Shown: positions 2,363-41,063, numbered from the stretch's first letter. The stretch is DNA of 64,000 nt from Thermoplasmata archaeon (GCA_035557795.1 DATMDM010000166.1:2735-66734), one strand, 5' to 3'. Numbers and translations are program-made. Notes: generated by a model not told the origin, from the letters alone.

Positions 2363-2364
2363 CT
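2346..2364 (+). repeat. Direct repeat copy 1 (3' end of tRNA-Pro, aaatctgcccagccccact); att-like
   Basis: 18 of 19 nt are identical to 3021..3039. Confidence 0.6.
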
Positions 2365-4356: not shown

Positions 4357-5064
4357 GTGCGCCTCGACGAGATGACCTCTGAGGAGTTCGCGGCGATCGC
4401 GAAGAAGGATCCCGTGGTCATCATCCCGGTCGGCGCGCTCGAGGAACACGGTCGGCACCTCCCCCTCGGCGCAGATGTGATTCAACCGCTTCACGTGGTC
4501 GACGAGGTCGCGCGGCGCACCCACGCCTACATCGCCCCCCCGATTCCGTACGGGGTCTGCACGACGACGCGGCCGTATCCGGGGACCGTCAGCGTCTCCG
4601 TCGACGCGCTCAAGGCCTTCGTGCGGGATATCCTCGCCGATTTCGTCCGCAACGGTGTGCGACGCGTGATGATCTTGAGCGGTCACGCCGGGCGAGAGCA
4701 CATGATGGCGTTGCGGGCGGCCGCGCAAGAGGTCGTCGACGAAGGGACCGGACTCAAGGCGACCGTCCTGTCGGACTACGACATCATCTACGCCTCGCAG
4801 GGCCTCCTACCGGAGGGCGACGGCCACGCGGGCGCGGGGGAGACGTCCCGGATCCTGACGGCGCGGCCTGATCTCGTGAAGGGCACGAGTCCGGCCGGGA
4901 AGAACGAGATTCCTCCATACGCGGTCGTCGACGACCCGCGGAAGTACTGGTCCGGCGTCACCGGGGATCCGTCGAAAGCCTCGAAGGCTTTGGGACAGAA
5001 GCTCGATGATCTCGTCATCGGGGAGCTCGTGAAGCTCGTCGAGGAACTGCGCCGGAGGGCCTGA
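4357..5064 (+). CDS. Creatininase-family amidohydrolase (ArfB-like)
   Basis: 235 aa. GALEEHGRHLPLG...SGHAG motifs of creatinine amidohydrolase and archaeal ArfB deformylase. Confidence 0.6.
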   Translation: MRLDEMTSEEFAAIAKKDPVVIIPVGALEEHGRHLPLGADVIQPLHVVDEVARRTHAYIAPPIPYGVCTTTRPYPGTVSVSVDALKAFVRDILADFVRNGVRRVMILSGHAGREHMMALRAAAQEVVDEGTGLKATVLSDYDIIYASQGLLPEGDGHAGAGETSRILTARPDLVKGTSPAGKNEIPPYAVVDDPRKYWSGVTGDPSKASKALGQKLDDLVIGELVKLVEELRRRA

Positions 5065-5065
5065 C

Positions 5066-5758
5066 ATGGCATCCCGAGACGAGTTGAAGCGGAACGCCGC
5101 GGAGGCCGCGTTGGCGTATGTCAAGCCAGGAATGGTCCTCGGTCTCGGCACCGGATCGACGGCGCGGCACTTCCTCGCGGGCGTCGCCCGGCTCGTGGCC
5201 GGCGGCATGGACATCAAGGGTGTGCCGACGTCTCTCGCGACTGCGGAGGAGGCGAAGCGGCTCGGGATTCCGCTGACCTCCCTCGAGGAGAGCTTCTGGC
5301 TCGACCTGACCGTGGACGGCGCCGACGAGGTCGACCCCAAGCTCGACCTGATCAAAGGCATGGGCGGCGCCCTGTTCCGCGAGAAGATCGTGGCCGCGGC
5401 GTCGAAGAAGTTCGTCGTGATCATCGACGACTCGAAGCTCGTCCGTCGCCTCGGCACGAAGACGCCGTTGCCCGTCGAGGTCCATCCGTTCGGCTGGAAG
5501 AACGCGGCCGCGGCGCTCGAGGCGCTCGGCGCCAAGATCGAATTGCGGAAGAACGGCGAGGAGCCATTCCGAACCGACAACGGGAACCACATCCTCGATG
5601 CCCACTTCGGCGCGATCCGGGGGCCCGCGAAACTCGCGGGCCGGATCTCGAGCATCCCCGGCGTCGTCGGCCACGGACTGTTCCTGAAGATGGCCCACGC
5701 CGTGCTGGTGGCGTCCCAGATGGGCGTCCGCACGCTCGAGCCTACGCGAACGACTTGA
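5066..5758 (+). CDS. rpiA: Ribose-5-phosphate isomerase A
   Basis: LGLGTGSTA and DGADEVD motifs. 230 aa. Confidence 0.85.
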
Positions 5759-6065
5759 GCTTCTTGCGGTTCGCCTCGATCCGATCGATCTTCGCCTGTT
5801 CTTCCCGGTCGATTTGGGCGAGGATGTCCGCCCACGGGACACTGAGCCGGTACGAATGGACGGGCCGGCCTTTGCCTTCCTTCTTGATGTCCCTCTTGTC
5901 GACCCACTTCCGCCGCCGGAGTTCCTGCATCGCGATGCTGACTTCCGGTTGACGCAGGCCCGTGGCCTTCTCGATCTCCACCGACGTCGTCTCGTCGCGC
6001 TTCGAAAGGAATACGAGGGTCTTCGCGATGTTCCTCGACAAGCCGGTCTCGATCAGCAGGTCCAC
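5742..6065 (-). CDS. Winged-HTH transcriptional regulator
   Basis: 107 aa. The NIAKTLVFL...[29 protein letters not shown] segment looks like a wHTH domain. Confidence 0.5.
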
Positions 6066-6120
6066 CAGCGTTTCGTCCCTCCGACTGAGGCGGACCTCCC
6101 GGCTCGTTGGAATTCCCCGC

Positions 6121-6165
6121 CATTTATTAATTTAGCAATATATATTTGTTGCGATGCAACTGGTG
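6121..6165. promoter_or_regulatory. AT-rich divergent promoter region with TATA-like elements (catttattaatttagcaatatatatttg)
   Basis: The only strongly AT-rich stretch locally. Sits between the wHTH regulator (minus) and L44e (plus). Confidence 0.35.
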
Positions 6166-10086: not shown

Positions 10087-10206
10087 TGCTATTTTATATC
10101 ACGCGGCTGGTCGATGCTTGTTGAGTTGAAACAAGGAGACGGCAGGCTTATGCGGTCACCCTCGGTAGCTCAAGGAAAAGCAAGTCACTAGGGGTAGGGA
10201 ACCGCT

Positions 10207-11100
10207 GTGGATCTTTACGGACCGGGTTTCGAAGAACCCTTCGCGCTGGTCAAACGGCGCATATTCCGAACCGGAGTCCTGCAGGGGCTCCTCTTCGTCG
10301 CTGGAAGTCTTCCAACCGCGGTTGCGGGCGCAATCTACGGACTTTCCCCGGTCTTGGCGATCGGGATCTTGGGACTCGTCCTGAGTCTCTTGCCGTTTTC
10401 GGGCGCCGTTCGCATCTATCGCCGGCTAAGTGACCCGAGGGTAACGTCGGATGGGGTATACCTCCCGCTTCCGAAACGGTTCCTCGAAGGAGGATACCGT
10501 GTGCCTTCGGAAGCAATCGCCGGGGCTGAGCTCCACGAATCCCCGCCTAAGGCGTTTGTGAGCTTCGAGGTGAACACGGCAGAGGGTAGGCGGACGGTTG
10601 CCATCGAGAAGGGCCTGATCGTCAGCTGGCCTGCCTTCGTCCGGGCTCTCCATCTCCTCGGGATCAAGGGCGTCCGCGCACCGCACTCACCGCGGCCAGT
10701 GTCTGTGTTTGAGGACATGTTCAATCGATCGGGACGCCGCCGGTTGACGTACCTTGGTTTCGTCGGAGGCTTGGCCTGCAGCATTGTGGTCGGATTTTCC
10801 CTCAGGGTGAGCTTTACGCTCGTGGCGTTTGCGTTCTCGTCGCTTGTTTCGGTGCTAGTCGTCGCCCTTGCGCTTCTCTTAGCCCGGCGCGTTCCTCTTC
10901 ACGTCCAAGTCGATGGGCAACATGTTTCGATCCGGTTGTTCGGGCGGTCAAAGCCAGTCCGGTTGCAGCTCCCGCAGATTCGAGTTGGGGCCGCTTGGGT
11001 GACAAGGTTGTCCGGTGGTTCACAGGTAACGTACGGTCCCCTGGACTCGGAAATCGTTCGTCGTTTGGAGTCCGTTGCAAGGCCGGAGGGAGACACTTGA
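10207..11100 (+). CDS. Membrane-anchored protein, paralog family A (N-terminal TM helices plus C-terminal soluble domain)
   Basis: 297 aa. Same architecture as the 13202 and 13915 ORFs. Confidence 0.4.
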   Translation: MDLYGPGFEEPFALVKRRIFRTGVLQGLLFVAGSLPTAVAGAIYGLSPVLAIGILGLVLSLLPFSGAVRIYRRLSDPRVTSDGVYLPLPKRFLEGGYRVPSEAIAGAELHESPPKAFVSFEVNTAEGRRTVAIEKGLIVSWPAFVRALHLLGIKGVRAPHSPRPVSVFEDMFNRSGRRRLTYLGFVGGLACSIVVGFSLRVSFTLVAFAFSSLVSVLVVALALLLARRVPLHVQVDGQHVSIRLFGRSKPVRLQLPQIRVGAAWVTRLSGGSQVTYGPLDSEIVRRLESVARPEGDT

Positions 11101-13193
11101 GCCTCTCAGGTGGTTCGCGGTTCATCGCGATCCTTGGCCTCACTGTTTCGATCAGCCGCAACACAGTTGAAGGCGCGTGGCTTGGGCTCGTAATGGCTGG
11201 GATTGGTTTGCTCATCACAGTTGCCAACCAGGACATTTTTGACCTCAGCCCTGTTTCTCCTTTAAACGCCGTTGAAGAGGTTGTGAGTACGGTGGCGGTC
11301 GGAGCCGCCGTCGCGGCGTACTGGTGGACCACGCCGCCGGGGACCCGAAACACCGTGCAGGGGCACTACCTGTCCGTCGACGTGCCGGACGATTCGACGT
11401 CCGTGAACATCACGCTGCAGATGTGGTCCTACGACTCCAGCGGACACAACCAGCACTCGAACATCGCGATTGCCCAGGATTGCGAGACGGTCGGGGGCGT
11501 CCTCGTCTGCTATGATCGGTACGGTCCGGTGACGTTCCAGTACTACCTTCAGGCGCCATACCACTCCACGTGGTACAACTTCTCAGGCCACGACGGCGGC
11601 AGTCTTCAAGCCCTTCCACTCACCGTCATCGTCTCGACGATCGTGCCGTACCGGATCGGCACGTCCCTCATCGTGCCGGCAGACTATTCGGGGATTTACA
11701 ACGTCACCGATTCCCAAGGGAACATCCTCGCGCGGCGCTACACGGGCGAACCGCGGTTCGTCGCGCTCCTGCTTAACGTGACGTCGATTGCGGGCACGGA
11801 TCCGGAGGCGATCCTTGTCCCGCGGTCGTTGTTCTTCTCGACTCTCCTCTACTCATATCTGAACTCGACGAGTCCGCCGACCCTCGTGAGCCAGCTCTCG
11901 TATGGGCAGAACGCTACGACGGCGTCGGCGAACGCGGACGACCTGCAGGAAGTCCTCTACGGCAACGTCACCCTAGACGACTTCCTGACGATCGTCGACG
12001 ACCTCGAGGTCAACGCGTCCGGTGGGACGATCGGCCGATCGTTCGTCTTCTCGATCAACGACGAGGTCGCAGGGAACCCGCTCTTCTACTCCCTCCCCGA
12101 CCGCGTCGTGCGGCTCGTCGGCTACCTCCCGCCCCTGACGGCTTCCTCGTGGTCGTACACGTTCTGCACGTCGTCTTGCGGTCAACCCACGCAGAGGCCG
12201 TGGTGGGAAGCCGTCTGGAATGGCTTCGTGTCGGTCGTCACGGGCGTGGTGCAAGCGGCGATCGTCATCGCCGCGACCGCATTCAAGGCGATCAGTACCG
12301 TCCTCGCGCAGGTCGGCGCGTGGCTCGTGGCCGCCGGGAACGCGGTCAAGAGCGCGGTGCAAGCGGCGGCGAAAGTGCTGGGACAGGTGCTTGAATTCGT
12401 TACGTTGCTCGTTAGGCAGATGGTCCAAAAGCTCATCGGTCCGCTACTCGCCGGGCTGAGCGAATCGACATCTGAGACACGCCTATCGGTCCAGAGCGCG
12501 TACCCCTCAGCCCTACGGCAGTACCAAACCATGGGCTCTCTCGACCCTTCTACGATTCAGGGGCTCGTCAACGTTCTCGCCGGGAAATACATCTGGATCC
12601 TCCTCGGGCTGAGTGCCGCCGTCGTGGCGATAGGAATTGCTCTCTACCCGATCGCACCAATTGGTTTGGCAATCATGACCGTAGCGGGCGCTATCGCGGG
12701 TGCGCTACTCTTCAAGGCAATTACCGGCGTCGACTTCGCGCTGCCGGCGAAGACTCCGTCCGTTGGACTCATGAACCCATTCAGCAGTAGCGTCTCCGAG
12801 ATTGCCTTAGCCTACGCCAACGCGGTGAGTCCGGACCCACAACTTGCCGACGAGCGGAAATCTGAGGCGGCTCTGGCGTCTATCGTTTTCGGTGCCTTCG
12901 CGGGATTCATCGGTCTAGCTGCCCTCTCAGCGGTCGATCCCACCGGTACCACTATCGCCCTCGCCGGAGTGGTCATATCAGCTGCAGGAGCTCTCTTGGC
13001 AGGGGCGGCAGTGCTTCCTGGAGCATCGGGCCTTGCAATTCTCGCTCTAGGGTTCGCGTTTTCTGGTTTCGTGGCCGCCCTCGCGGGCTTGGCGGCCTCA
13101 TACATCGCCGGGAATTCTGGCGCCGTCTTCGCGGGTTGGATCAGCTTCGATTTGTCACTCGGGTCGATTGCTTTCGCGATAGTGGCTTTGTGA
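11097..13193 (+). CDS. Large predicted membrane glycoprotein (N-terminal TM hairpin, sequon-rich ectodomain, C-terminal Ala/Gly-rich multi-TM region)
   Basis: ~698 aa from a TTG overlapping the upstream stop. At least 8 N-x-S/T sequons. The C-terminal ~250 aa are strongly hydrophobic and A/G-rich. No catalytic motifs. Confidence 0.45.
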   Translation: MSLSGGSRFIAILGLTVSISRNTVEGAWLGLVMAGIGLLITVANQDIFDLSPVSPLNAVEEVVSTVAVGAAVAAYWWTTPPGTRNTVQGHYLSVDVPDDSTSVNITLQMWSYDSSGHNQHSNIAIAQDCETVGGVLVCYDRYGPVTFQYYLQAPYHSTWYNFSGHDGGSLQALPLTVIVSTIVPYRIGTSLIVPADYSGIYNVTDSQGNILARRYTGEPRFVALLLNVTSIAGTDPEAILVPRSLFFSTLLYSYLNSTSPPTLVSQLSYGQNATTASANADDLQEVLYGNVTLDDFLTIVDDLEVNASGGTIGRSFVFSINDEVAGNPLFYSLPDRVVRLVGYLPPLTASSWSYTFCTSSCGQPTQRPWWEAVWNGFVSVVTGVVQAAIVIAATAFKAISTVLAQVGAWLVAAGNAVKSAVQAAAKVLGQVLEFVTLLVRQMVQKLIGPLLAGLSESTSETRLSVQSAYPSALRQYQTMGSLDPSTIQGLVNVLAGKYIWILLGLSAAVVAIGIALYPIAPIGLAIMTVAGAIAGALLFKAITGVDFALPAKTPSVGLMNPFSSSVSEIALAYANAVSPDPQLADERKSEAALASIVFGAFAGFIGLAALSAVDPTGTTIALAGVVISAAGALLAGAAVLPGASGLAILALGFAFSGFVAALAGLAASYIAGNSGAVFAGWISFDLSLGSIAFAIVAL

Positions 13194-23549: not shown

Positions 23550-23855
23550 TCAAGGCAACTCGACGACGACCTTCCCGTCTTCGATTGCAACCGGATAGGA
23601 CCGAACCGGCTTCCGGGCTGGAGGGCCCACGACGTTCCCGGACGTCACGTCGAACCGCGACCCGTGCCACGGGCACTGGATGATGGAGCCTTGAAGCCGG
23701 CCTTGGCACAGTGGCCCACCCAAGTGGGTGCACGTGTTGTCGAGACAGTACACCTTCCCGGCGACCTTGAACAACGCGTACGGCCTTTGATTAGCCGAAA
23801 CGCATTTCGTACCGCCCTCCGGCACCTCGCTCTCCGTACCCAGGATGGCGCGCAT
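23550..23855 (-). CDS. Rieske [2Fe-2S] domain protein
   Basis: CTHLGGPL...CPWHGSRF cluster-binding boxes. 101 aa. Confidence 0.75.
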   Translation of the reverse strand: MRAILGTESEVPEGGTKCVSANQRPYALFKVAGKVYCLDNTCTHLGGPLCQGRLQGSIIQCPWHGSRFDVTSGNVVGPPARKPVRSYPVAIEDGKVVVELP

Positions 23856-23908: not shown

Positions 23909-25225
23909 CTAGGAGCGGGCGGACAGGGGAAACCGCGGCGTCGCATCGGCGATCTGCTCTCGTTCTGTCGACCCCTTCATCGCGAGGGTCGACGAGGTCC
24001 CGCCGGAGATGACCTGGCTGACCGCATCGAAGAACTCGGTCCCGACAAAGGCCTGGTGTTCCGTCGCTCGGTACCCGCGCTCCCGCGCCGCGAACTCGTC
24101 GTCCTGGAGTTCCGCATAGGCGGTCATCCCGCGGTCCGCGTATCGAGAGGCAAGTTCGAACATCGATAGGTTGAGCGTGTGGAACCCGGCGAGGGTGACG
24201 AACTGGAACCGATACCCCATCCGCCCCAGCTCCTGCTGGAACTCCGCGAGCGCGGAGGGATCCAGCTTCTTCCTCCAGTTGAACGAGGCCGAACAGTTGT
24301 AGGCGAGCAGCTTTCCGGGGAAGCGTGCGTGGATCGAGTCGGCGAACTCGCGAGCCTCCTCCACATCCGGAGAGGATGTCTCGCACCACAGCATGTCCGC
24401 ATACGGGGCGAACGCGAGGCCGCGGGCGATGGCCGCCGGCAGCCCGCCTTCGAACTGGAAGAAGCCTTCCGCTGTGCGCTCGCCTCCGATGAACGGACGG
24501 TCGGACGGATCGGCATCGCTCGTGATGAGGCGTGCGCTGTTCGCATCGGTCCGGGCGACGATCAACGTCCGGACGCCCATCACGTCGGCCGCGAGCCGAG
24601 CCGCGACGAGCTTCTGGATGAACTCCGAGGTCGGGACGACAACCTTCCCTCCGAGATGGCCGCACTTCTTCGCGGCTGCGAGTTGATCCTCGAAGTGGAC
24701 GCCGGCCGCTCCGGCCTCGATCATGGCCTTCATGAGTTCAAACGCGTGGAGGGGCCCACCGAATCCGGCTTCCGCGTCCGCGACGATCGGGACGAACCAG
24801 TCGACGTCGTGATTCCCGGCCATGTGCTGCTTTTCGTCTTCTCGCCGGAGTGCGTTGTTGATTCGCCGGACGACATTGGGGACGCTGTCCGCCGGGTAGA
24901 GGCTCAGATCGGGATACATCTGGCCCGCCCCGTTGCCGTCGGCGGCAACTTGCCAACCGCTCAGGTAGATCGCCCGGAGACCGGCTCGGACCTGCTGGAT
25001 CGCCTGGTTTCCGGTGAGCGCTCCCAGGGCAGGGACGTAGTTCTCCGACTTCAGGAGGCTCCAGAGGCGACCGGCCCCGCGCTCCGCGAGGGTATGCCGA
25101 ATCCGAATCGTTCCCCGAAGCCGGACGACGTCTTCCGGCCCGTAGGGGCGGATGATTCCGGCCCACCGTTCATCCATCTTCCAGTCCGGTTCCAGGTTCC
25201 AGGTCTCATCGATCATTCGGTCCAC
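23909..25225 (-). CDS. aceA: Isocitrate lyase
   Basis: KKCGHLGGK catalytic signature and overall ICL similarity. 438 aa. Confidence 0.85.
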
Positions 25226-31265: not shown

Positions 31266-31787
31266 ATGACGCTGGAAGGAAGAAAAGTCGTCGTGCTCGC
31301 GGAAGATGGATACGAGGATCTCGAACTCTGGGTGCCATACTACCGGCTCGTGGAGGAAGGGGCCGAGGTAGTCCTCGCAGGTCACGAGAAGCGGACTTAC
31401 ACGTCGAAGCACTCGTACCCGTGCGAGGTCGACGTGACGGCCGCCAACCTGAAGGCGAAGGATTTCGACGCCGTCGTGATTCCCGGAGGCGTTGCGGGCC
31501 CGGATCGGATGCGCCAGCACAAGGAAATCCTGTCGTTCGTCCGCTCGATGGACGAAGGCCGCAAAGTCGTTGCAGCGATCTGCCATGCGGCGTGGGTGCC
31601 GATTAGCGCGGGGATCGTCAAAGGCCGCCGGATGACCTCGTATGCAAGCGTGCGAGACGACTGTCTGAACGCGGGCGCGGACTGGGTCGACAAGGAATGT
31701 GTGGTCGACGGGAATCTCATCACGTCGCGTTTCCCAGACGATCTTCCCGCGTTCTGTCGGGCCATCGTCTCCGCTTTGACGAAGTGA
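31266..31787 (+). CDS. DJ-1/PfpI family protein
   Basis: AICHAAW nucleophile-elbow Cys. 174 aa from internal M86 of the listed ORF. Confidence 0.75.
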   Translation: MTLEGRKVVVLAEDGYEDLELWVPYYRLVEEGAEVVLAGHEKRTYTSKHSYPCEVDVTAANLKAKDFDAVVIPGGVAGPDRMRQHKEILSFVRSMDEGRKVVAAICHAAWVPISAGIVKGRRMTSYASVRDDCLNAGADWVDKECVVDGNLITSRFPDDLPAFCRAIVSALTK

Positions 31788-31796: not shown

Positions 31797-32426
31797 ATGG
31801 TCCGCGCACCCGCGGACTGGCGGAGCGTGCTTCGTCGCGCCGAGGTCCTCGTCCGACGCCGTGACATGCGGAGCCTCGAGCTGCTCCTTCCCGCCCTCCG
31901 TTGGCGGTACCTGACGGCCCGCAACCGAGCCGTGGTCCTCCTCGCCCGTTTGGGCCCGATTGCGGTCCCGCCTCTCCTCCAAACCCTGGAAAGCTCGCGG
32001 ACCGCCACCGAGCGCTCGGGAGCGGCCGATGCACTCGGCCGGATTGGGGATTCCCGGGCCGTCTCGCGACTGATCCGCGCGCTCGCGGATCCCGCGATGA
32101 CCGTGCGGCGGGCTGCGATGATCGCATTGCTGCGGCTCGAAGCGATGGACGCCGTGCCAAAGATCGCGCGCCTCCTGGAGGACGAGTCCGGTGGAGTGCG
32201 CTTGACTGCCGCGGGCGTCCTCGGGAAGCTCGAAGACCCTCGAGCCGTTCCGGCTCTCGTCCGCGCGCTCGACGACCCGCAATGGTTTGTGCGTCAGGCG
32301 TCCGCAACGGCGCTCGGAGCGATCGGGGACCGACGGGCCGCACCCGCGCTGCAGAAGGCAACTCACGATCCTCGGAAATCCGTCGCGCGGGCGGCGGCCG
32401 CGGCGCTGCGGGCGTTGCGAGCGTAA
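31797..32426 (+). CDS. HEAT-repeat (PBS-lyase-like) protein
   Basis: Repeated AxxALGxIGDxRAVxxLIxAL units. Confidence 0.6.
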   Translation: MVRAPADWRSVLRRAEVLVRRRDMRSLELLLPALRWRYLTARNRAVVLLARLGPIAVPPLLQTLESSRTATERSGAADALGRIGDSRAVSRLIRALADPAMTVRRAAMIALLRLEAMDAVPKIARLLEDESGGVRLTAAGVLGKLEDPRAVPALVRALDDPQWFVRQASATALGAIGDRRAAPALQKATHDPRKSVARAAAAALRALRA

Positions 32427-32528: not shown

Positions 32529-32601
32529 GCCGCGGCGCGGGCTCGTGGTCTAGTGGCTATGACATCGCCTTGACATGGCGAAGGTCACCGGTTCGAATCC
32601 G
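32529..32601 (+). tRNA. tRNA-Val(GAC), CCA not encoded
   Basis: GGGCTCG acceptor pairs with CGAGCCC. Anticodon loop TTGACAT. T-arm ACCGG-TTCGAAT-CCGGT. Confidence 0.85.
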
Positions 32602-32670
32602 GTCGAGCCCACTGCCATTTCGAGTCGAAACCCGCAAATGATATCTACGCGCGCGGAATTCGGGGTGACG

Positions 32671-32838
32671 ATGAAGCGTCCGAACTGGAAGGCGATCGGG
32701 TTCCTCGCGTTCATCGCGGTGGGCGCCGTGTCCGCGGCGCTGGGATGTCCGTTCTTCCGAAACCCGGAGAACTACATGTCCGCAGGAGGCCTCGTTGGAT
32801 ACGTTCAGCACCTGGTCTCCGTGCACCGCAAGACCTGA
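32671..32838 (+). CDS. Possible small membrane protein
   Basis: 55 aa with one hydrophobic helix. The listed ORF starts inside tRNA-Val, so it is trimmed to internal M. Confidence 0.2.
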   Translation: MKRPNWKAIGFLAFIAVGAVSAALGCPFFRNPENYMSAGGLVGYVQHLVSVHRKT

Positions 32839-32994
32839 CGTGTCGGAGCCGGCGCTGACTTTCGGAACTACGCAGAGAGTCCGATCGATGGGCGGGGCGC
32901 AAGATCCTCGTGGCCCCGGTCGAGGCCGTCGCTCAACCGGTCACGTCAAACCGTTCTGTTCCGCCGAAGTTATCATTATGATGTGAATCGTCTG

Positions 32995-33018
32995 CGCACA
33001 CGTTCTTATAGGCTCGTC
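32995..33018 (+). promoter_or_regulatory. Putative TATA/BRE for the heme operon (cacgttcttataggctcg)
   Basis: AT-rich TATA-like element ~30 bp upstream of the hemA start, in an otherwise GC-rich spacer. Confidence 0.3.
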
Positions 33019-33041
33019 GGGTCGGACCTGTCGCGAGGCCG

Positions 33042-34328
33042 ATGAGTCGCGAGGCGCTTTCATCTCCGGGTCCTTCTGATGGGGTCACCCCCCCGGTCGC
33101 GCTACACCTCCTCGTAATCGGCACAAACCATCGCACCTCGAGCCTCGACGTGCGCGAGCGGCTACTCGGCAAAGCCTCCTATCCGTCGCTTCGGAAGGCC
33201 GGCGGACGCACCAGTCCCTGGTCCGACCTCGTCCTGCTGACGACGTGCAACCGAGTCGAAGTATACATGCTCACGGAGGCCCCTCGACGGGCCTGCGAAG
33301 CCGTTCTGAGAGCCCTCGGCGTCTCCGAGGACGAGCATCTACTGTACGTCCTCGAAGACCGCGATGCCGCGGCGCATCTTCTGCGCGTCGCCAGCGGTCT
33401 GGACTCGCTTGCCGAAGGCGAAGAGCAGGTGGCCGCGCAGGTCCGGAACGCCCCACGACAGCGACCGGCCCGGGCCTCGGCAGGCGGGCCCCTGGCCGAT
33501 TTATTCCTTCACGCCGCCCGGAGCGCTTCCCGGATCCGGAAACTCGCGGGCGTCTCAGTCGCCGACGCGTCCGCGAGTCACGCCGCCGTTCGATTCCTCG
33601 AGGCCGTCGTTCCGGTCGAGAATCGAATCGTCGCACTGATTGGGACAGGGAAGATGGCACGCATCGCGGCGAAGAGTCTCCGGCCGCGCGCCGAGATCCG
33701 CATCCTGAATCGGAATTTCGCGCGGGCCCGCGAGCTGGCAGAAGCCCTTGGCGGGAAGGCCGTCCCGCTGGCGGATCTTCGGAAGGTTCTCACCGAAGCC
33801 GATATCGTCCTCGCCGCGACCGCGGTCCGACACCCGCTCCTCACCGCGCAGACGCTCTGCACTGCAATCCGTCGACGCGAGGGTCGCCCGATCTGGCTCA
33901 TCGACCTTGGGTTTCCCCGGAACGTCGATCCGAGCTGTCGCACCCTCGCGGGCGTTCACGTGGTGGATTTGGATGGACTCGCGCCCTGGGGTCAGCGTCC
34001 TCCGTCACCGAGCGCCCAGGCCCGGGTCGAGCACCGAATCCGGGGGGAGGCGGAACGCATGATCGAATCGTTGCGCCCGGCCGCGTCGGTGGACATTGCC
34101 GTCCTCAGACGCAAGGCGGAAGCGGTCCGGCGGCACGAGGTGGAAACGACGTTGGCCCGACTCCCGGATCTCTCCGAGGGAGATCGCGCCGTCGTGGACA
34201 AGCTCGCGACTCGTTTGGTGAACCGGTTCCTCCACGGTCCCACCGAACGCCTACGCTCCCTCCCCGAGGGGACACGCACGGAAATCGTCCGGCAGATTGT
34301 CGAGAGCCTCCAACGAGGTCCTGGATGA
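33042..34328 (+). CDS. hemA: Glutamyl-tRNA reductase
   Basis: TCNRVE catalytic Cys motif, NADPH-binding GTGKMA, C-terminal dimerisation helix. 428 aa. Confidence 0.85.
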   Translation: MSREALSSPGPSDGVTPPVALHLLVIGTNHRTSSLDVRERLLGKASYPSLRKAGGRTSPWSDLVLLTTCNRVEVYMLTEAPRRACEAVLRALGVSEDEHLLYVLEDRDAAAHLLRVASGLDSLAEGEEQVAAQVRNAPRQRPARASAGGPLADLFLHAARSASRIRKLAGVSVADASASHAAVRFLEAVVPVENRIVALIGTGKMARIAAKSLRPRAEIRILNRNFARARELAEALGGKAVPLADLRKVLTEADIVLAATAVRHPLLTAQTLCTAIRRREGRPIWLIDLGFPRNVDPSCRTLAGVHVVDLDGLAPWGQRPPSPSAQARVEHRIRGEAERMIESLRPAASVDIAVLRRKAEAVRRHEVETTLARLPDLSEGDRAVVDKLATRLVNRFLHGPTERLRSLPEGTRTEIVRQIVESLQRGPG

Positions 34329-35245
34329 CTCCGTCCTTGCGGGCCGGCACTCGGGGGAGCCCGCTCGCGATCGCCCAGGCGGACGAAGTGGTGGTACGAC
34401 TCCGGACGATCCGGCCCGGCCTCCGGACGGAGACCGTCGTGATCCGGACCCATGGGGACGAAGGATATCGAGAGGACTTGGGAACGGCCCTCGACGGCAA
34501 GCGGGCCTTCACGAAACGCATCGAGGACGCTCTCCTGGAGGAGCGCATCGACTTCGCGGTCCACAGCCTGAAGGACTTGCCGACCGAAACCGCGACCGGA
34601 CTCGTCATCGCGGCGATTCCGCCGAGGGAGGATCCGAGAGATGCCCTCGTCGGCCGACGCCTGATGACTCTCGACGACTTGGGTCCGGGCGTCCGCGTCG
34701 GCACGAGCAGCCTCCGTCGGCGCGCGCAGCTCTTGTCGCAACGGCCCGGCCTCGAGGTCATCGCTCTCCACGGGAACGTGAATACCCGTCTGCGCCGACT
34801 CGACTCGAACGACTTCGACGCCGTGGTTGTCGCGGCCGCGGGCATGCGCCGACTCCACATCGATGACCGGTTCGCTCACCCGCTGTCGCCGGACGTGATG
34901 ACCCCCGCCCCCGGTCAGGGCGCGCTCGCCCTGGAGGCGCGAAAGGGCGACCGTCCGGTTCTCGACCTGTTGTCCGCGATTGACGACCCGAGTGCCCGCC
35001 GCACGACCGAGGCGGAGCGGGCCCTCGGCGCCCGTGTTGGCGGCGGATGCAACATCCCCTTCGGAGCGCTCGCCACGGTTGAGGGCGGCATGCGTCTTCG
35101 CGCCGTGCTTGCAGACCCGGAGGGTCGCCGCATCATCCGATCCGAGGATCGAGGCGACGCGTCTCGCTGGAAGGAAATCGTTGACTCCGTGTGGGCAAAA
35201 CTCGTTCAACAAGGAGCGGCCGACCTGGTCGCCGAGGCGGCGTAG
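34325..35245 (+). CDS. hemC: Porphobilinogen deaminase (hydroxymethylbilane synthase)
   Basis: GTRGSPLAIAQA N-terminus and the cofactor-binding Cys region (GGGCNIP). The ATG overlaps the hemA stop (ATGA). Confidence 0.85.
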   Translation: MTPSLRAGTRGSPLAIAQADEVVVRLRTIRPGLRTETVVIRTHGDEGYREDLGTALDGKRAFTKRIEDALLEERIDFAVHSLKDLPTETATGLVIAAIPPREDPRDALVGRRLMTLDDLGPGVRVGTSSLRRRAQLLSQRPGLEVIALHGNVNTRLRRLDSNDFDAVVVAAAGMRRLHIDDRFAHPLSPDVMTPAPGQGALALEARKGDRPVLDLLSAIDDPSARRTTEAERALGARVGGGCNIPFGALATVEGGMRLRAVLADPEGRRIIRSEDRGDASRWKEIVDSVWAKLVQQGAADLVAEAA

Positions 35246-36013
35246 ATGGACGACCTCCCGTTTCGCGGCCAGACGTTCCTCGTCGCAACCTCGGAAGACC
35301 TCGCCGACAAAGTCGCTCGTGCGGTGCGGGAGAGAGGAGGCCGCGCAATTCCATTCCCAACGATTCGCCTGGTTCCACCGGCGGACTACGAGAACCTGGA
35401 CCGCGGGCTTCGCCTCTGGCGGACGTTGGATTGGGTGGTCTTCACGAGTGCCCACGGCGTCGAGGCGGTCGTCGACCGGTCGAGGGCCTTAGGCGTGGAC
35501 TTGGCCGGCTTCCAGGGAAAGGTCGCGGCCGTAGGCCCCGCGACAAAAGCGGCCGCGGAGGCAGCGGGCCTGGCCGTGTCCTTGGTCCCGAACGAATTCC
35601 TGACCGATGCCATCGCGGGTGCGCTCGGCGACGTGTGCGGGCGAACGATCTTCCTGCCCCGCTCCCGGATCGCGCGGAAAAGCCTCGCGGACGAGCTGCG
35701 GGATCGAGGTGCGCAGGTCATCGAGGCGGATGCATACGACGCGATCCCGGCCGCGCCGGACATCGACGTTCTCCGGAAGACGGACCGGATCGATGTCGTG
35801 CTGTTCACGAGCGCGTCCGCGGCGACTCATCTAATGGACCTTCTTCCGAAAGACGTGCGGGACCGGTTGATCAAGGAGGCCGAGGCCGCGTGCATTGGAC
35901 CGGTCACCGCGCAGGCCGCACGTTCTCTCGGGTTCCGAGTTTGCGCGGTCGCGCGCAACCATACGGTCGACGGACTCGTCGAAAGCTTAGAGGAGGTTCG
36001 TGCCAATGGCTGA
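35246..36013 (+). CDS. hemD: Uroporphyrinogen-III synthase
   Basis: HEM4-like two-domain protein of 255 aa. Consistent with its position between hemC and hemB. Confidence 0.7.
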   Translation: MDDLPFRGQTFLVATSEDLADKVARAVRERGGRAIPFPTIRLVPPADYENLDRGLRLWRTLDWVVFTSAHGVEAVVDRSRALGVDLAGFQGKVAAVGPATKAAAEAAGLAVSLVPNEFLTDAIAGALGDVCGRTIFLPRSRIARKSLADELRDRGAQVIEADAYDAIPAAPDIDVLRKTDRIDVVLFTSASAATHLMDLLPKDVRDRLIKEAEAACIGPVTAQAARSLGFRVCAVARNHTVDGLVESLEEVRANG

Positions 36014-36998
36014 GCTCCCGCGTCCCCGCTATCGGCCCCGACGGTTGCGGAGGACCGCCGCCATCCGTGCGCTCGTCCGAGAGACGTCCGTCGACATCGA
36101 TCGTCTCGTGCAACCGCTCTTCATTCGGGAGGATCCCCGCATGGGGTCGGCGATTCCCTCCATGCCGGGCATCTTTCGACTGACGATGGACGAGGCCGCG
36201 TCCGAGGCGGAGCAGCTTGCGGAACTTGGCGTCCCCGCCGTGATCCTCTTCGGCCTCCCGGCGGAGAAGGATTCGCTCGGCCAGGGAGCGTACGACGAAA
36301 GCGGCGTCGTGCAGCAGGCCGTCCGTGCGGTGAAGAGGGCAACCCCGGATCTCATCGCGATGACGGATGTCTGCCTCTGCGAATACACCGACCACGGGCA
36401 TTGCGGCGTGGTCCGGGATGGTCGAATCGACAACGACGCGTCCCTCGAACTGCTCGCCAAGACGGCCGTGAGCCAGGCACGCGCGGGCGCCGACCTCGTG
36501 GCTCCAAGCGCGATGATGGACGGCCAGGTCGGCGCCATCCGCGCGGCCTTGGACCGCGAAGGATTCGAGGAGACGGCGATCCTCGCGTACGCAGCGAAGC
36601 ACGCCTCCGCGTTCTATGGCCCGTTCCGAGACGCCGCCGATTCCGTCCCCCGGTTCGGCGACCGCCGCACCTACCAGAAGGATCCTGCGAACCTGCGCGA
36701 GTCCCTCCGCGAGATCGCTCTCGACCTGGAGGAAGGTGCGGACATCGTGATGGTCAAGCCCGCCCTCGCATACCTGGACGTGATTCGCGCGGCGCGCGAA
36801 CGGTTTGACGCGCCGCTTGCCGCGTATTCCGTGAGCGGAGAGTACAGCCTGATCAAGGCGGCCGCGGAACGGGGATGGGTCGACGAACGCTCCGTGGTCG
36901 AGGAGACGATCACCGCAATCCGTCGCGCGGGCGCGGACCTCATCCTGACCTATTACGCGAAGGACTTCGCACGATGGCGGCGGGAGAGACGCGCATGA
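36000..36998 (+). CDS. hemB: Porphobilinogen synthase (ALA dehydratase)
   Basis: Active-site Lys regions and the CEYTDHGHCG metal-binding Cys cluster. 332 aa. Confidence 0.85.
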   Translation: MPMAELPRPRYRPRRLRRTAAIRALVRETSVDIDRLVQPLFIREDPRMGSAIPSMPGIFRLTMDEAASEAEQLAELGVPAVILFGLPAEKDSLGQGAYDESGVVQQAVRAVKRATPDLIAMTDVCLCEYTDHGHCGVVRDGRIDNDASLELLAKTAVSQARAGADLVAPSAMMDGQVGAIRAALDREGFEETAILAYAAKHASAFYGPFRDAADSVPRFGDRRTYQKDPANLRESLREIALDLEEGADIVMVKPALAYLDVIRAARERFDAPLAAYSVSGEYSLIKAAAERGWVDERSVVEETITAIRRAGADLILTYYAKDFARWRRERRA

Positions 36999-37732
36999 CG
37001 GAGCCGACTCAGGGGCAAGGATCCGACGAAACCGGGGAGGCGGGAGAATCCCGCGAGTTCCTCAAGTACACGTTCTACCAGGTCCGACCCGAATGGCGGC
37101 TGCTCGACTCGGAGCGGAAGAAGAAACAGAAAGCGGAGTTCGCCTCGCTCCTCCATGATCTCGAGGAAGACATCACCCTCTGGTGCTACTCCCTTCAAGG
37201 GATCCGGGCCGACGTGGATTTCATGGTCTGGGCGATCGACCCGCACCTCGAGACGTTACGGGAAATGGCCCGTCGAGTCTCATCGACGGAACTCGGCCAT
37301 TACCTCGAGACGACGTATGCATATCTCGCCGCGAGCAAGCGGTCCCAATACACAGGCGGCCACACCCACAAAGGTCAGGACGGTCTCGCCATGAAATCGG
37401 AGCCGCACGGTAGCCGCTACCTCTTCGTCTATCCGTTCGTGAAGAAGCGGGAGTGGTACTCGATTCCCTTTGAACATCGGCAGGAGATCATGCGGGATCA
37501 CTTCCGCATCGGCCACAAGTATCCCGACGTCAAGATTCACACGGCCTATTCGTTCGGGCTCGACGATCATGAGTTCGTTTTGTCCTTCGAGGCTGACAAT
37601 CCACTCGACTTCCTCGACCTCGTGATGGACCTCCGCTCGAGCGAGGCGAGCAAGTACACGGAGCGGGAGACGCCGATCTTTACGTGCATCCTATCCACGC
37701 CGGAGCAGATGCTCGACGCCCTGGGGATTTGA
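36995..37732 (+). CDS. Chlorite dismutase family protein (HemQ/ChdC-like, putative coproheme decarboxylase), operon copy
   Basis: EWYSIPFEHRQEIMRDHFRIGHKYPDVKIHTAYSFGLDDHEFVLSFEADN fits the Cld/HemQ pattern. The ATG overlaps the hemB stop. Confidence 0.6.
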   Translation: MTEPTQGQGSDETGEAGESREFLKYTFYQVRPEWRLLDSERKKKQKAEFASLLHDLEEDITLWCYSLQGIRADVDFMVWAIDPHLETLREMARRVSSTELGHYLETTYAYLAASKRSQYTGGHTHKGQDGLAMKSEPHGSRYLFVYPFVKKREWYSIPFEHRQEIMRDHFRIGHKYPDVKIHTAYSFGLDDHEFVLSFEADNPLDFLDLVMDLRSSEASKYTERETPIFTCILSTPEQMLDALGI

Positions 37733-37733
37733 C

Positions 37734-39047
37734 ATGGGATTCACAGCCTCCGGGGCGCTGAGCGCGCCGGAGTCGGAGAAGCTTTTCGGGCGGGCCCAAG
37801 AGAGCCTCGTTGGCGGAGTCGACAGTCCGGTCCGTTCGTTTCGATCCGTCGGCGGAACCCCGCGGTTCGTTGTTCGCGGAAACGGCGTAACCCTATGGGA
37901 CGCAGACGGACGCCGGTATCTTGATTTTTGCATGTCGTGGGGCGCTCTTGTACTCGGTCACGCGAATCCCTCCGTCGTCCGCGCCGTCCGCAGTGCCGCG
38001 GGCCGCGGGATGAGCTTCGGGGCCGCGACGGAGTCGGAGGTCCGCCTGGCCGAAGAAGTGAAGCGACGGTTCCCGAGCATCGACCTGCTCCGCTTCGTCA
38101 ATTCGGGAACGGAGGCCACGATGTCCGCCGTCCGCGTGGCTCGCGGCTTCACGGGTCGCGACAAGATCGTCATGTTCGAGGGGGCATACCACGGACATGC
38201 GGACGCCTTGCTCGTGAAAGCCGGTTCCGGGCTGGCCGCCGCGAGTTTGCCGGGTTCCGCGGGCGTCCCCGACAACGCGGTGCGGGACACGTTGTTGGCG
38301 CAGTACAACGACCTCGCTTCCGTGGAGGGTCTCTTCCGCAGCTACGGGGATCAGATTGCGGCCGTCTTGGTCGAGCCCATCGCCGGGAACATGGGCGTTG
38401 TCCCGCCGGATCCCGATTTCCTCGAAGGCCTCCGCCGGATGACTCGGGAGTTCGGCAGCCTGCTCGTCTTCGATGAGGTCATCACGGGCTTTCGGGTTGC
38501 GCCGGGCGGTGCCCAAGAGAAGTACGGCGTCGCGGCGGACGTCACCTGTCTGGGGAAGATCCTCGGCCACGGCATGCCCCTCGGGGCCTACGGAGGGCGG
38601 CGGGACATCCTCGAGATGGTCGCCCCGCTCGGCCCGGTGTACCAGGCGGGGACCCTCGCCGGGAACCCGATGGCGATGGCGGCCGGCCAAGCGACCATGA
38701 GTCAGCTGCGCCCCAGCCTGTACGCGAGTTTGGAGAAGCGCAGCGCTCAACTCGAGACGGGGCTCCGGGATGCGGCCGACGACGCGGACATGGAGGTGCA
38801 GGTGCCGCGCGTCGGATCGATGATGGGCATCTTTTTCCGGCCCGAGCCCGTCCGGAACTACCGCGACGCGCAGGCGATGAACAAGACCACGTATGGGCGC
38901 TTCTTCTGGGCTCTGCTGAAGGGCGGTGTGTACTTTCCGCCCGCTCCGTTCGAGAGCTTCTTCCTATCCTCGTCGCACCGTAAGCCGGAGGTCGAGCGGA
39001 CGATTGAGGCGGCCGCGGCCGCGCTCCGGGAGGTCCGGAATTCTTGA
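37734..39047 (+). CDS. hemL: Glutamate-1-semialdehyde 2,1-aminomutase
   Basis: Class-III aminotransferase with the GSA-AM N-terminus (SPVRSFRSVGGTP) and PLP-Lys region. 437 aa. Confidence 0.85.
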   Translation: MGFTASGALSAPESEKLFGRAQESLVGGVDSPVRSFRSVGGTPRFVVRGNGVTLWDADGRRYLDFCMSWGALVLGHANPSVVRAVRSAAGRGMSFGAATESEVRLAEEVKRRFPSIDLLRFVNSGTEATMSAVRVARGFTGRDKIVMFEGAYHGHADALLVKAGSGLAAASLPGSAGVPDNAVRDTLLAQYNDLASVEGLFRSYGDQIAAVLVEPIAGNMGVVPPDPDFLEGLRRMTREFGSLLVFDEVITGFRVAPGGAQEKYGVAADVTCLGKILGHGMPLGAYGGRRDILEMVAPLGPVYQAGTLAGNPMAMAAGQATMSQLRPSLYASLEKRSAQLETGLRDAADDADMEVQVPRVGSMMGIFFRPEPVRNYRDAQAMNKTTYGRFFWALLKGGVYFPPAPFESFFLSSSHRKPEVERTIEAAAAALREVRNS

Positions 39048-40069
39048 ACGATCGTTTCCTGCGTGCGTGCTGGCGCGAGCCCGTGGACTGCACCCCGGTC
39101 TGGTTCATGCGTCAAGCCGGTCGGTCCTCCCCGGCCTACCGGGCGATCCGCGCGAAGCACGGTATCTTGCAAATCGCAAAGTCGCCGGACCTGGCCGCCG
39201 AGGTGACCCTCCAGCCCCTCCGGGAGCTCGGGGTGGACGCCGCGATCGTGTTCGCGGATCTCCTGTTGCCGGTCGAGGCGATGGGCATCCGGGTGCGGAT
39301 CGACGCCGGCGAGGGTCCGATCCTCGAGCCCCGCATTCGCACCTCCGAAGACGTCGACCGATTGAAGCGGCTCGATCCCGTGAGAGACATGCCGTTTGTC
39401 TTCGAGACGATTCGACGCGTACGAGCCATGGCGGCGGTCCCTTGCATCGGATTCGCCGGCGCGCCGTTTACCCTGGCGAGCTACCTGATCGAAGGCGGGT
39501 CCTCCCGGGATTTCCTCGCGACGAAGTCGTTCATGCATGCGCATCCTGCCGACTGGCGGCGGTTGATGAACTTCCTCGTCGATGGGATGGCCACGTACCT
39601 TCGGGCCCAGGTCGATGCCGGCGCCCAAGCCCTCCAACTGTTCGACAGCTGGGCCGGCGCGCTGAGCCCCCGCGAATATGATGAGAGTGTGTCTCCGTTC
39701 ACGCGCCGCCTCTTTCACGAAATCTGCGAGACGGGAGTCCCGTGCATCCATTTCGGCACGGGCACATCCGGATTTCTCGAATCCTTTGCCGCGGCGGGAG
39801 GGGACGTCGTTGGCGTGGACTGGCGGATTCCGATCGATACCGCTTGGCGGCGGATTGGCGAGGACCGGGGAATTCAAGGCAATCTGGATCCGGCCGCCCT
39901 CCTCGGCCCGGCGGACGTTTGGCGGCCGGCGGCCCAGGACGTGTTAGACCGGATCGGGAACCGTACCGGCCATGTGTTCAATCTGGGCCACGGAGTCTTG
40001 CCGGAGACGCATCAGGACGAGTTGCGAGCGCTCGTGGGGCTCGTCCACGAGTCGACTCGGCGGGGATGA
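39044..40069 (+). CDS. hemE: Uroporphyrinogen decarboxylase
   Basis: PVWFMRQAGR URO-D signature. 341 aa. Confidence 0.85.
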   Translation: MNDRFLRACWREPVDCTPVWFMRQAGRSSPAYRAIRAKHGILQIAKSPDLAAEVTLQPLRELGVDAAIVFADLLLPVEAMGIRVRIDAGEGPILEPRIRTSEDVDRLKRLDPVRDMPFVFETIRRVRAMAAVPCIGFAGAPFTLASYLIEGGSSRDFLATKSFMHAHPADWRRLMNFLVDGMATYLRAQVDAGAQALQLFDSWAGALSPREYDESVSPFTRRLFHEICETGVPCIHFGTGTSGFLESFAAAGGDVVGVDWRIPIDTAWRRIGEDRGIQGNLDPAALLGPADVWRPAAQDVLDRIGNRTGHVFNLGHGVLPETHQDELRALVGLVHESTRRG

Positions 40070-40079
40070 GGAGGCCGTC

Positions 40080-41063
40080 ATGTCGAGAATTTCCGAGGAC
40101 GAACGGACGGCCGTCCTGTTGACGGCCGTAGGGGGACCCAACTCGCTCGATGAGGTCGGTCCGTTCCTTCTCGACGTGCGCGGGGGACGGCCGACGAGCG
40201 AAGAACTCATTGATGAATTCCGCGAGCGGTACCGCCGAATCGGCGGGAAATCACCGCTCCTGGACATTTCGCGGGCCCAGGCCAACGCTCTTGAAGACCG
40301 CCTGAACGGCGACGACCGGGCAACTTACCGGTGCTACGTCGGCATGAGGAACTGGCGACCATACATCCGGGATGTGATCACGGAAGTCGTCGCGGACGGC
40401 GTGGACCGGCTTGTCGTCCTGCCGCTGACGCCGTACTACTCCCGTAGGAGCGTGGGGGCCTATTTCGCCGCCGCCGACGCCGCGCTTTCGACGGTCGCCC
40501 GGCGGCCAGATGTGGCATATGTCGAGAGTTGGAACACGGAGCCTGCGCTAATCGGCATGTTCGCGGCGAAGGTCCGGGAGGGTCTCGAGCTCCTCGCACA
40601 GAGGAGTTTCCACGCCCCAATCGTCGTGTTCACCGCCCACAGCCTCCCAAAGAAACTCATCGACGGAGGGGACCCGTATGAACGGGAACTGTCCGAGACG
40701 ATGGCCCTCGTGCTCCGTCGACTGCCGTCTTTCCGGGCTCGGATGGCGTGGCAGAGTGCGGGCCGAACTGACGAGGCATGGCTCGGACCTCCGCTTGAGG
40801 AAGTCTTGGAGGAGATCGGAAAGACCGGTGAGAAGGCCGTGCTCGTGGTTCCGTTCGGATTCGTCTCGGACCATTTAGAAATCCTGTACGATGTGGACAT
40901 CGAGGCTCGGGCATTCGCTTCGGAGAGAGGTCTTCAACTCGAACGCACGGACTCGCCGAACACGGACCCGGGTTTCATCGACGCGATGGCTGCCGCGGTG
41001 CGGTCCGCCGGCCGTCCTTCCTCGAGGTCGCGTTCTGGCGAATCGCCAGCGCCGGTGCTTTAA
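40080..41063 (+). CDS. hemH: Ferrochelatase (HemH/CpfC type)
   Basis: Ferrochelatase fold motifs (LLTAVGGP, FTAHSLP, PFGFVSDHLE). Starts at internal M37 of the listed ORF. Confidence 0.8.
   Translation: MSRISEDERTAVLLTAVGGPNSLDEVGPFLLDVRGGRPTSEELIDEFRERYRRIGGKSPLLDISRAQANALEDRLNGDDRATYRCYVGMRNWRPYIRDVITEVVADGVDRLVVLPLTPYYSRRSVGAYFAAADAALSTVARRPDVAYVESWNTEPALIGMFAAKVREGLELLAQRSFHAPIVVFTAHSLPKKLIDGGDPYERELSETMALVLRRLPSFRARMAWQSAGRTDEAWLGPPLEEVLEEIGKTGEKAVLVVPFGFVSDHLEILYDVDIEARAFASERGLQLERTDSPNTDPGFIDAMAAAVRSAGRPSSRSRSGESPAPVL

Follow-up and report, generated by a model that had tools for sequence, protein, structure and literature searches.

Gene content of the heme locus

The subject of this analysis is a group of eight heme biosynthesis genes on a 64,000-nucleotide stretch of DNA from a Thermoplasmata archaeon (GCA_035557795.1, DATMDM010000166.1:2735-66734), which is called the window below. 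Genes were assigned to families by profile searches against NCBIfam and Pfam. These searches place hemA, hemC, hemD, hemB, a chdC (hemQ)-type gene, hemL, hemE and hemH, in this order and all in the same direction, at 33042-41063 on the plus strand (Table 1). All eight genes named in a preliminary description of this DNA are therefore present, and their family assignments are those of the coproporphyrin-dependent (CPD) type of heme pathway that it had proposed.

The genes are tightly packed. hemA and hemC overlap by four nucleotides (ATGA), hemC and hemD abut (TAGATG), hemD and hemB overlap by eight nucleotides, and hemB and chdC overlap by 25, or by an ATGA if chdC begins at 36995 instead of the publicly called start at 36974. 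One nucleotide separates chdC from hemL, hemL and hemE overlap by four (TTGA, with TTG as the start codon of hemE), and hemE is followed after ten nucleotides by hemH, whose ATG is preceded by GAGGAGG. The ATGA junctions mentioned in the preliminary description thus occur literally at one or two positions, and the other junctions differ but are equally tight. With all genes on one strand and junctions ranging from -25 to +10 nucleotides, the locus forms an operon-like block, and its eight genes are presumably co-transcribed.

For hemA, we prefer the start at 33042 over the public call (392 aa, GTG at 33150), because alignments to the HemA models begin as early as residue 22-24 of the longer, 428-aa protein; in the public call the conserved N-terminal strand is truncated. 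All three expected domains (GlutR_N, Shikimate_DH and GlutR_dimer) were found. A tRNA-Val gene and a small open reading frame (ORF) precede the non-coding leader of hemA. About 30 nucleotides 5' of the hemA ATG, at 33003-33012, this leader contains the AT-rich sequence TTCTTATAGG, and it is possibly an archaeal promoter region. A scan for sigma-70 promoters and intrinsic terminators, which models bacterial and not archaeal signals, found nothing above the level of shuffled sequences.

Table 1. Coordinates of the heme operon and of other features of the window
Feature	Position	Strand	Evidence or remark
Leader upstream of hemA	32839-33041	+	203-nt non-coding gap; candidate archaeal promoter region
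hemA, glutamyl-tRNA reductase, 428 aa	33042-34328	+	TIGR01035 246.9 bits (cutoff 209.6)
hemC, hydroxymethylbilane synthase, 306 aa	34325-35245	+	TIGR00212 292 bits (cutoff 164)
hemD, uroporphyrinogen-III synthase, 255 aa	35246-36013	+	PF02602 (HEM4) 1.6e-52
hemB, porphobilinogen synthase, 330 aa	36006-36998	+	NF006762 486 bits (cutoff 297); Pfam ALAD 2.3e-145
chdC (hemQ)-type, putative coproheme decarboxylase, 252 aa	36974-37732 (alternative start 36995, 245 aa)	+	PF06778 5.1e-58
hemL, glutamate-1-semialdehyde 2,1-aminomutase, 437 aa	37734-39047	+	TIGR00713 581 bits (cutoff 527)
hemE, uroporphyrinogen decarboxylase, 341 aa, TTG start	39044-40069	+	TIGR01464 402 bits (cutoff 303)
hemH, short soluble-type ferrochelatase, 327 aa	40080-41063	+	TIGR00109 234 bits (cutoff 125)
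tRNA-Pro(UGG), 96 nt	2268-2363	+	ARAGORN
ORF, 297 aa	10206-11099	+	no Pfam/NCBIfam match
ORF, ~698-732 aa	11096-13193	+	no Pfam/NCBIfam match
Second chlorite dismutase family gene, 199 aa	15675-16274	+	no NCBIfam match
Small ORF with Rieske-type motif	23550-23855	-	CTH...CPWH
Isocitrate lyase	23909-25225	-	PF00463 2.3e-107
DJ-1/PfpI	31266-31787	+	
PBS-lyase-type HEAT-repeat protein	31797-32426	+	
tRNA-Val	32539-32612		
Small ORF preceding the leader	32575-32838		
Animal haem peroxidase family protein, 488 aa	42874-44340	-	PF03098 1.8e-18; no NCBIfam match

The chlorite dismutase family gene of the operon

The fifth gene of the operon encodes a protein of the chlorite dismutase (Cld) family, which the preliminary description had taken for a HemQ/ChdC-type protein. 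Its best NCBIfam model is HemQ_actino (NF042928, 148.6 bits). The best solved relatives in sequence are the coproheme decarboxylases of Streptomyces (9MHR/9MIQ, ~1e-30) and Corynebacterium (6XUB, 2.5e-21); the matches to Nitrospira Cld (~1e-15) and to Thermoplasma 3DTZ (8e-15) are weaker, the scores being 110 bits to Streptomyces ChdC versus 58 to 3DTZ. An AlphaFold2 (AF2) model with a mean confidence (pLDDT) of 82.5 has the dimeric alpha+beta barrel fold of the Cld family, and Foldseek matched it best to Streptomyces coelicolor ChdC (E 1e-20, TM score 0.75-0.85).

The residues that separate ChdC from true Cld, whose inspection had been suggested in the preliminary description, gave a consistent picture. 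Tyr153 aligns with Y135 of Corynebacterium ChdC, the radical site (equivalent to Y147 of LmChdC), His130 aligns with H118, which acts as the distal base, and the proximal ligand corresponds to His176; the Corynebacterium numbering was verified via the W183Y mutant entry. Among the 79 relatives from the genome scan described below, Tyr153 and His176 are invariant (79/79) and His130 is retained in 73. Functional Clds carry an essential arginine 13 residues past the proximal histidine, a spacing rule that was checked on NwCld (3QPI) and on a second Cld-family gene of the window, with Arg in both. The operon protein has His189 at this site, and the 79 relatives have His or Asn (Ser once) and in no case Arg.

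The second Cld-family gene lies 21 kb upstream of the operon. Its product matches the clade-2 Clds 9GTJ (5e-64), 3QPI (2e-61) and 5K8Z (2e-59), all of known structure, and has the appearance of a true Cld of clade 2 (the short, dimeric type) in a soil Thermoplasmata.

Given the active-site residues, the missing Arg at +13 and the contrast to this paralogue, we assign the operon gene to the ChdC type; its product is thus a predicted coproheme decarboxylase. If it were instead a true Cld that lies in the operon by chance, the title of its Pfam family ("Chlorite dismutase") and the corresponding public annotation of its relatives would be accounted for, and on fold alone Nitrospira Cld scores almost as well, as the comparison of folds separates ChdC from Cld weakly. 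However, none of the 80 family members has the distal-site Arg, the best matches in both sequence and fold are ChdCs, and an Arg-bearing clade-2 Cld-like gene exists separately in the same window. We consider a true Cld at this position highly improbable, and the second of the two findings that the preliminary description had named as speaking against it was thus not obtained.

Affinities of the other operon enzymes

The best matches of HemH in the PDB are the coproporphyrin III ferrochelatase chains 6RWV, 6SV3 and 8OFL (Listeria CpfC) with 193 bits. 1AK1, which we take to be the Bacillus subtilis ferrochelatase, follows with 189 bits and human ferrochelatase with 144 bits; against a single 362-aa coproporphyrin ferrochelatase chain the score was 105.6 bits. 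The equivalents of the catalytic residues His182 and Glu263 (Listeria numbering) are conserved, as are those of R29, R45, Y46 and S53, presumably the residues that contact the propionates in the Listeria enzyme. The protein is of the short form and lacks a Cys-rich tail. Taken by its sequence, HemH is likely a coproporphyrin ferrochelatase.

HemE matches 2INF best (322 bits), presumably a Bacillus subtilis protein. HemL scored 500 bits with 3K28 and 478 bits with 3BS8, which we assume to be from Bacillus anthracis and Bacillus subtilis, and 350 bits with 2EPJ, presumably the protein of the archaeon Aeropyrum pernix. The matches of HemB do not discriminate. The operon enzymes, with at least one trunk enzyme among them, thus look bacterial in type, which agrees with an interdomain origin.

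Host and integrity of the locus

Genes for aIF2-alpha, diphthamide synthase, PAC2, RIO1 kinase and DUF835 are found as archaeal markers on the same contig, which also encodes ribosomal proteins L44e and S27e and Nop10. The tRNA-Pro(UGG) gene, which the Rfam tRNA model did not report at its gathering threshold, is longer than an intron-less tRNA would be, as expected if an archaeal intron follows the anticodon. Together, these features establish an archaeal host, as stated in the preliminary description. Among the species genomes of GTDB, the nearest relatives are metagenome-assembled genomes (MAGs) from soil named "Methanobacteriota archaeon EA_10/EA_12" and "Thermoplasmata archaeon". Since their ChdCs are 94-97% identical to that of the window, the host can be placed in the class Thermoplasmata.

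Enzymes of bacterial type in an archaeal contig could also result from contamination, i.e. from a bacterial heme operon that was mis-joined to archaeal DNA during assembly. However, the identical stretch is present in three independent assemblies (ENA ERZ27253151, where it belongs to the 70.9-kb contig k141_1672784, a Logan assembly and a JGI soil metagenome). Four related MAGs share the flanks of the operon, with DJ-1/PfpI and HEAT-repeat genes upstream and TMEM175, ornithine cyclodeaminase and peroxidase genes downstream, and archaeal marker genes lie on either side in related contigs. The eight genes have a GC content of 0.59-0.69 and a GC content at third codon positions (GC3) of 0.74-0.82, like the rest of the window. 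Because of the three assemblies, the shared flanks and the uniform composition, chimerism and recent import were rejected, and the chance that the locus is an assembly artifact is negligible.

Distribution and origin of the operon in archaea

When genomes, one for each species, were scanned with the ChdC of the window, 276 stretches with relatives were obtained. The best 80 were kept, and all eight operon proteins were mapped onto these. The full order hemA-hemC-hemD-hemB-chdC-hemL-hemE-hemH was found in at least 43 of the 80 loci, and about 17 further loci have the same gene order interrupted by contig ends. These loci fall into two Thermoplasmata clades and the Nitrososphaeria (with the labels Nitrososphaerales, Nitrosopumilales and Thaumarchaeota). 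tblastn misses the divergent hemD of the second Thermoplasmata clade, which was recovered by ORF clustering. Six Bathyarchaeia loci have a shorter form, a radical SAM (rSAM) gene followed by hemC-hemD-hemB-chdC-hemE-hemH. Ten Chloroflexota loci (Dehalococcoidia/SAR202; L045, L051, L058, L071, L074-L076, L078, L081 and L083, in the L numbering of the scan) have chdC alone, with no hemE or hemH within 10 kb, and their ChdCs are 47-55% identical to the archaeal ones.

ChdC sequences were placed in a midpoint-rooted neighbour-joining tree, which carries no support values and in which two actinobacterial references are partial. The tree consists of taxon-coherent clades, with the Chloroflexota among the archaeal clades and the two actinobacterial references outside. 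As to a firmicute or actinobacterial kinship of the Cld-family gene, which the preliminary description had proposed to check by phylogenies, the closest bacterial ChdCs are those of the Chloroflexota (Dehalococcoidia/SAR202), where the gene stands alone, and not those of Firmicutes or Actinobacteria. The wide conservation of the gene order and the agreement of ChdC clades with taxonomy indicate an old, inherited archaeal operon, not a recent transfer. Recent horizontal transfer was therefore rejected, and any interdomain transfer must be ancient, since the operon is lineage-coherent and its composition shows no sign of recent import. Of the horizontal acquisition suggested earlier, the bacterial-type affinity of the enzymes remains, but a recent date does not agree with a gene order conserved in dozens of archaeal genomes.

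One MAG (GCA_964546105.1, CAZJIP01) contains two heme operons. In L016 the order is hemACDB-chdC-hemLEH-cgoX-rSAM, and in L091 it is hemACDB-hemLEH-cgoX-rSAM, without chdC. The pair could be paralogues, a strain mixture or a bin contamination. The contrast between the two hints at an insertion of chdC into an operon that existed before.

The coproporphyrinogen oxidation step

As the preliminary description had noted, the window does not encode the oxidase of the CPD pathway, CgoX. A tblastn search of its six reading frames with two archaeal CgoX proteins returned chance matches alone, and no CgoX was found at the left contig end (2.7 kb) or in the Pfam/NCBIfam scans of the window ORFs. In the same general scans, no HemF/HemN and no HemY/HemG/HemJ were found among these ORFs.

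This absence is not a general feature of the operon family. A HemY-like gene follows hemH in the related Thermoplasmata operons L008 (where it is cut by the contig end), L012 and L016 and also in L091, so that the full set of UroD, CpfC, CgoX and ChdC is present in these four relatives. The genes of L012 and L016 score 285-293 bits with TIGR00562 (cutoff 98). The L016 protein matches 3I6D, which we take to be HemY/CgoX of B. subtilis, with 314 bits, versus 204, 115 and 110 bits for the protoporphyrinogen oxidases of Myxococcus, plant and human, respectively. The oxidase thus exists in the operon family and is either unlinked or lost in the lineage of the window. Five CgoX homologues (P0016, P0015, P0011, P0023 and P0010) were examined as candidates and rejected: they lie in contigs of other organisms, in hemH-cgoX-rSAM triads or a second operon, and none can be tied to this genome.

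A further gene of interest is a TIGR04053 radical SAM/SPASM gene (421-467 bits), for which the heme b synthase AhbD is the second-best model. Of the 80 related loci, 13 carry it inside the heme operon or next to it (L012 15021-16544, L016 13985-15493, L020 7309-8400, L024 5462-6625 and nine more, with L084, L087, L089 and L091 also carrying it). hemH, cgoX and the rSAM gene form a recurring overlapping triad, which also occurs free-standing in other archaeal contigs. The TIGR04053 protein is probably an oxygen-independent coproheme decarboxylase that would act beside or instead of ChdC. In the window, tblastn with TIGR04053 proteins gave chance matches alone, and no other ahb family was found among the ORFs in the general Pfam/NCBIfam scans.

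The sub-lineage to which the window belongs may truly lack CgoX, in which case air or an unrecognised oxidase would carry out the step and the rest of the CPD pathway would be unchanged. This is in keeping with the missing gene in the window and the left contig end, and with the nearest relatives (L005, L006, L019 and L095), in which the operon likewise ends at hemH and is followed by unrelated genes. In addition, contigs as long as the operon-bearing ones of two relatives (427 and 522 kb) are absent from the clusters of the 120 best CgoX homologues. There is also a precedent for loss of the oxidase: Picrophilus and Thermoplasma, whose genomes are complete, possess hemE and hemH, whereas hemY, hemG, hemN and ahb-nir genes are all missing, and the heme route of these archaea was described as "unclear" (Storbeck et al. 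2010, PMC3004389). On the other hand, the sister operons L008, L012 and L016, whose ChdCs are 71-75% identical to that of the window, carry cgoX, and a relocation within the genome would fit as well. The inspected stretch amounts to about 67 kb of this genome, and the comparison of contig sizes covers the top 120 CgoX matches alone. We regard a sub-lineage without CgoX as a serious alternative that stays somewhat short of even odds. For the genome at hand, we lean slightly towards a cgoX gene elsewhere, with its loss as a substantial second possibility. Only tentatively would we extend this to a Thermoplasmata sub-lineage that, like Thermoplasma and Picrophilus, uses a CPD route without CgoX, relying on an unrecognised oxidase or on spontaneous oxidation.

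Proposed pathway

Our interpretation is that a single operon of a soil Thermoplasmata archaeon specifies almost all steps that lead from glutamyl-tRNA to heme b according to the CPD logic, for which we estimate a probability of roughly 0.8. HemA and HemL would convert glutamyl-tRNA to 5-aminolevulinate, from which HemB, HemC and HemD would form uroporphyrinogen III, and HemE would decarboxylate the latter to coproporphyrinogen III. The oxidation to coproporphyrin III is not encoded here and would fall to an unlinked CgoX, to another oxidase or to air. HemH, acting as CpfC, would insert iron into coproporphyrin III to yield coproheme. Finally, ChdC would use H2O2, the Tyr153 radical and His130 to turn two propionates of coproheme into vinyl groups, giving heme b. 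The interpretation is favoured by the linkage of chdC, which has hemB and hemL as its neighbours in archaeal operons, of which at least 43 are complete and about 17 are truncated by contig ends. The gene of the animal haem peroxidase family located 1.8 kb downstream of the operon represents a local heme demand and was also counted for it.

Several observations weigh against this interpretation. ChdC stays below the NCBIfam cutoffs (148.6 vs 235 bits for NF042928, HemQ_actino, and 90.6 vs 253 for NF008913), and public records name its relatives merely "chlorite dismutase" or "chlorite dismutase family protein" (P0121-P0240). In the AF2 model, the loop with the distal His (residues 130-138) has a pLDDT below 50. 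With no oxidase in the window or at the left contig end, the encoded pathway has a gap. Finally, the proximal residue of ferrochelatases is Tyr in Firmicute CpfCs, Phe in actinobacterial CpfCs and Met in human PpfC (PMC10427985), but it is Val17 in HemH of the window; the subclade has Val, Leu or Ala, and other archaeal operons have Tyr. As the residue is Val and not Tyr, Phe or Met, the porphyrin preference of HemH cannot be read from its sequence.

Both this valine and the lack of a local oxidase would also suit a protoporphyrin route, in which HemH is a PpfC, HemN/HemF and a protoporphyrinogen oxidase are encoded elsewhere, and the Cld-family protein has another role involving haem. HemH is nearer to solved CpfCs than to PpfCs, however (193 vs 144 bits), the catalytic residues of ChdC are invariant across the archaeal family, and chdC is linked to hemE and hemH by operon in dozens of genomes. 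Moreover, the oxidase that is linked to related operons is closest to 3I6D and not to the Myxococcus, plant or human enzymes. A protoporphyrin route is thus very unlikely.

Another option is a hybrid of the haloarchaeal kind, with ChdC being fed by coproheme that AhbABC make from siroheme, and with hemE and hemH being redundant or used otherwise. Its model is PitA of Haloferax, a protein with a ChdC domain that acts aerobically in an organism without uroD, cgoX and cpfC; the Ahb branch can thus feed a ChdC (PMC5746218). That chdC is flanked by hemB and hemL and shares its operon with hemE and hemH, a linkage kept in three archaeal lineages, argues against this model, as do the failure to detect an AhbD-like rSAM (tblastn) or another ahb family (general ORF scans) in the window and the lack of ahb-nir genes in the Thermoplasmatales examined in 2010 (PMC3004389). 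We therefore consider the hybrid unlikely and favour the CPD pathway.

Neighbouring genes

The preliminary description had pointed to aerobic heme enzymes near the operon. This holds for the haem-peroxidase family gene, which is kept in L006 and L019 and belongs to a family that is unusual for an archaeon, but isocitrate lyase and the adjoining small ORF with the Rieske-type motif are not heme enzymes. Just upstream of the operon, and separated from it by tRNA-Val and the small ORF, lie the DJ-1/PfpI and HEAT-repeat genes, a pair that is conserved in the nearest relatives alone (L004, L005 and L019). HEAT repeats of the PBS-lyase type are also found in bilin lyases. The two adjacent ORFs at 10206-13193 have no Pfam or NCBIfam match.

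Two crude ORF calls were rejected as antisense shadows. One of them (33992-35455, minus strand) lies within the operon region, and the other (4807-6123, minus strand) lies across from publicly called genes for creatininase and ribose-5-phosphate isomerase on the other strand.

Comparison with known systems

At every encoded step, the operon uses the same enzyme families as the CPD pathway of Firmicutes (Bacillus, Listeria and Staphylococcus, with hemAXCDBL, hemEHY and hemQ/chdC). HemE, HemH and HemL of the window and CgoX of its relatives match Bacillus or Listeria structures best, and the ferrochelatase is likewise short and soluble, without an Fe-S tail. In contrast to the Firmicute systems, there is a single operon with chdC between hemB and hemL and with neither hemX nor cgoX; the arrangements of heme genes in Bacillus and Mycobacterium differ from this. 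Also unlike Firmicutes, ChdC has a distal His of the actinobacterial kind, HemH has Val in place of Tyr, and the host is an archaeon.

With the actinobacterial CPD pathway (Corynebacterium, Streptomyces) the window shares the catalytic Tyr, distal His and proximal His of ChdC, and the ChdCs of Streptomyces and Corynebacterium are the best matches in sequence and fold. However, the structural alignment yields no more than about 28-29% identity, the protein scores below the HemQ_actino cutoff, and it lies on a separate archaeal/Chloroflexota branch of the neighbour-joining tree. Actinobacterial CpfCs often have a [2Fe-2S] cluster, whereas HemH of the window has no C-terminal cluster region and is far from the 362-aa coproporphyrin ferrochelatase chain, the only one of its kind in the PDB (105.6 bits, versus 193 for Listeria CpfC).

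Among archaea, the same class also includes Picrophilus torridus, Thermoplasma acidophilum and T. volcanium, which likewise have hemE, hemH and a ChdC-family protein with no oxidase found (PMC3004389, PMC7611857). The preliminary description had presented hemE and hemH as exceptional in an archaeal host, but they had already been listed for Picrophilus and Thermoplasma in 2010 (PMC3004389). The heme genes of these genomes are scattered, however (PMC3004389, Table 1), in contrast to the eight in one operon here. The Thermoplasma structure 3DTZ is treated as TaChdC (PMC7611857; PMC5095920), but ChdC of the window is distant from it, at 58 bits vs 110 to Streptomyces ChdC. Haloarchaeal PitA, a fusion of ChdC and ABM domains, is another archaeal ChdC-family protein, and it has been implicated in aerobic heme formation (PMC5746218). 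Haloferax differs in that its coproheme is derived from siroheme and that uroD, cgoX and cpfC are missing (PMC5746218); the ChdC of the window is a stand-alone protein of 252 aa with UroD and ferrochelatase in the same operon.

Recent reviews regard the coproporphyrin route as essentially one of Gram-positive bacteria (PMC10427985; PMC13564367). When 2,978 archaeal genomes were surveyed in 2024, the route was "complete" in a single Hydrothermarchaeota genome and in some Halobacteria alone (PMC11459464). Probably, surveys missed the pathway in Thermoplasmata and Nitrososphaeria because ChdC falls below the cutoffs and is named "chlorite dismutase", and because CgoX is often unlinked. The archaeal CPD operon is known in outline but under-recognised. 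The operon of the window is a correct and well-supported annotation, not a discovery, as it is widespread in archaea and fits the exception described in 2010.

A conserved hemACDB-chdC-hemLEH operon in soil and sediment Thermoplasmata and Nitrososphaeria bears on metabolic reconstructions of aerobic soil archaea, and also on scenarios for the evolution of the three heme pathways. The comparison of operons that end at hemH with those that continue with cgoX and an AhbD-like rSAM gene offers a handle on the "missing oxidase" of the Thermoplasmatales, which dates back to 2010.

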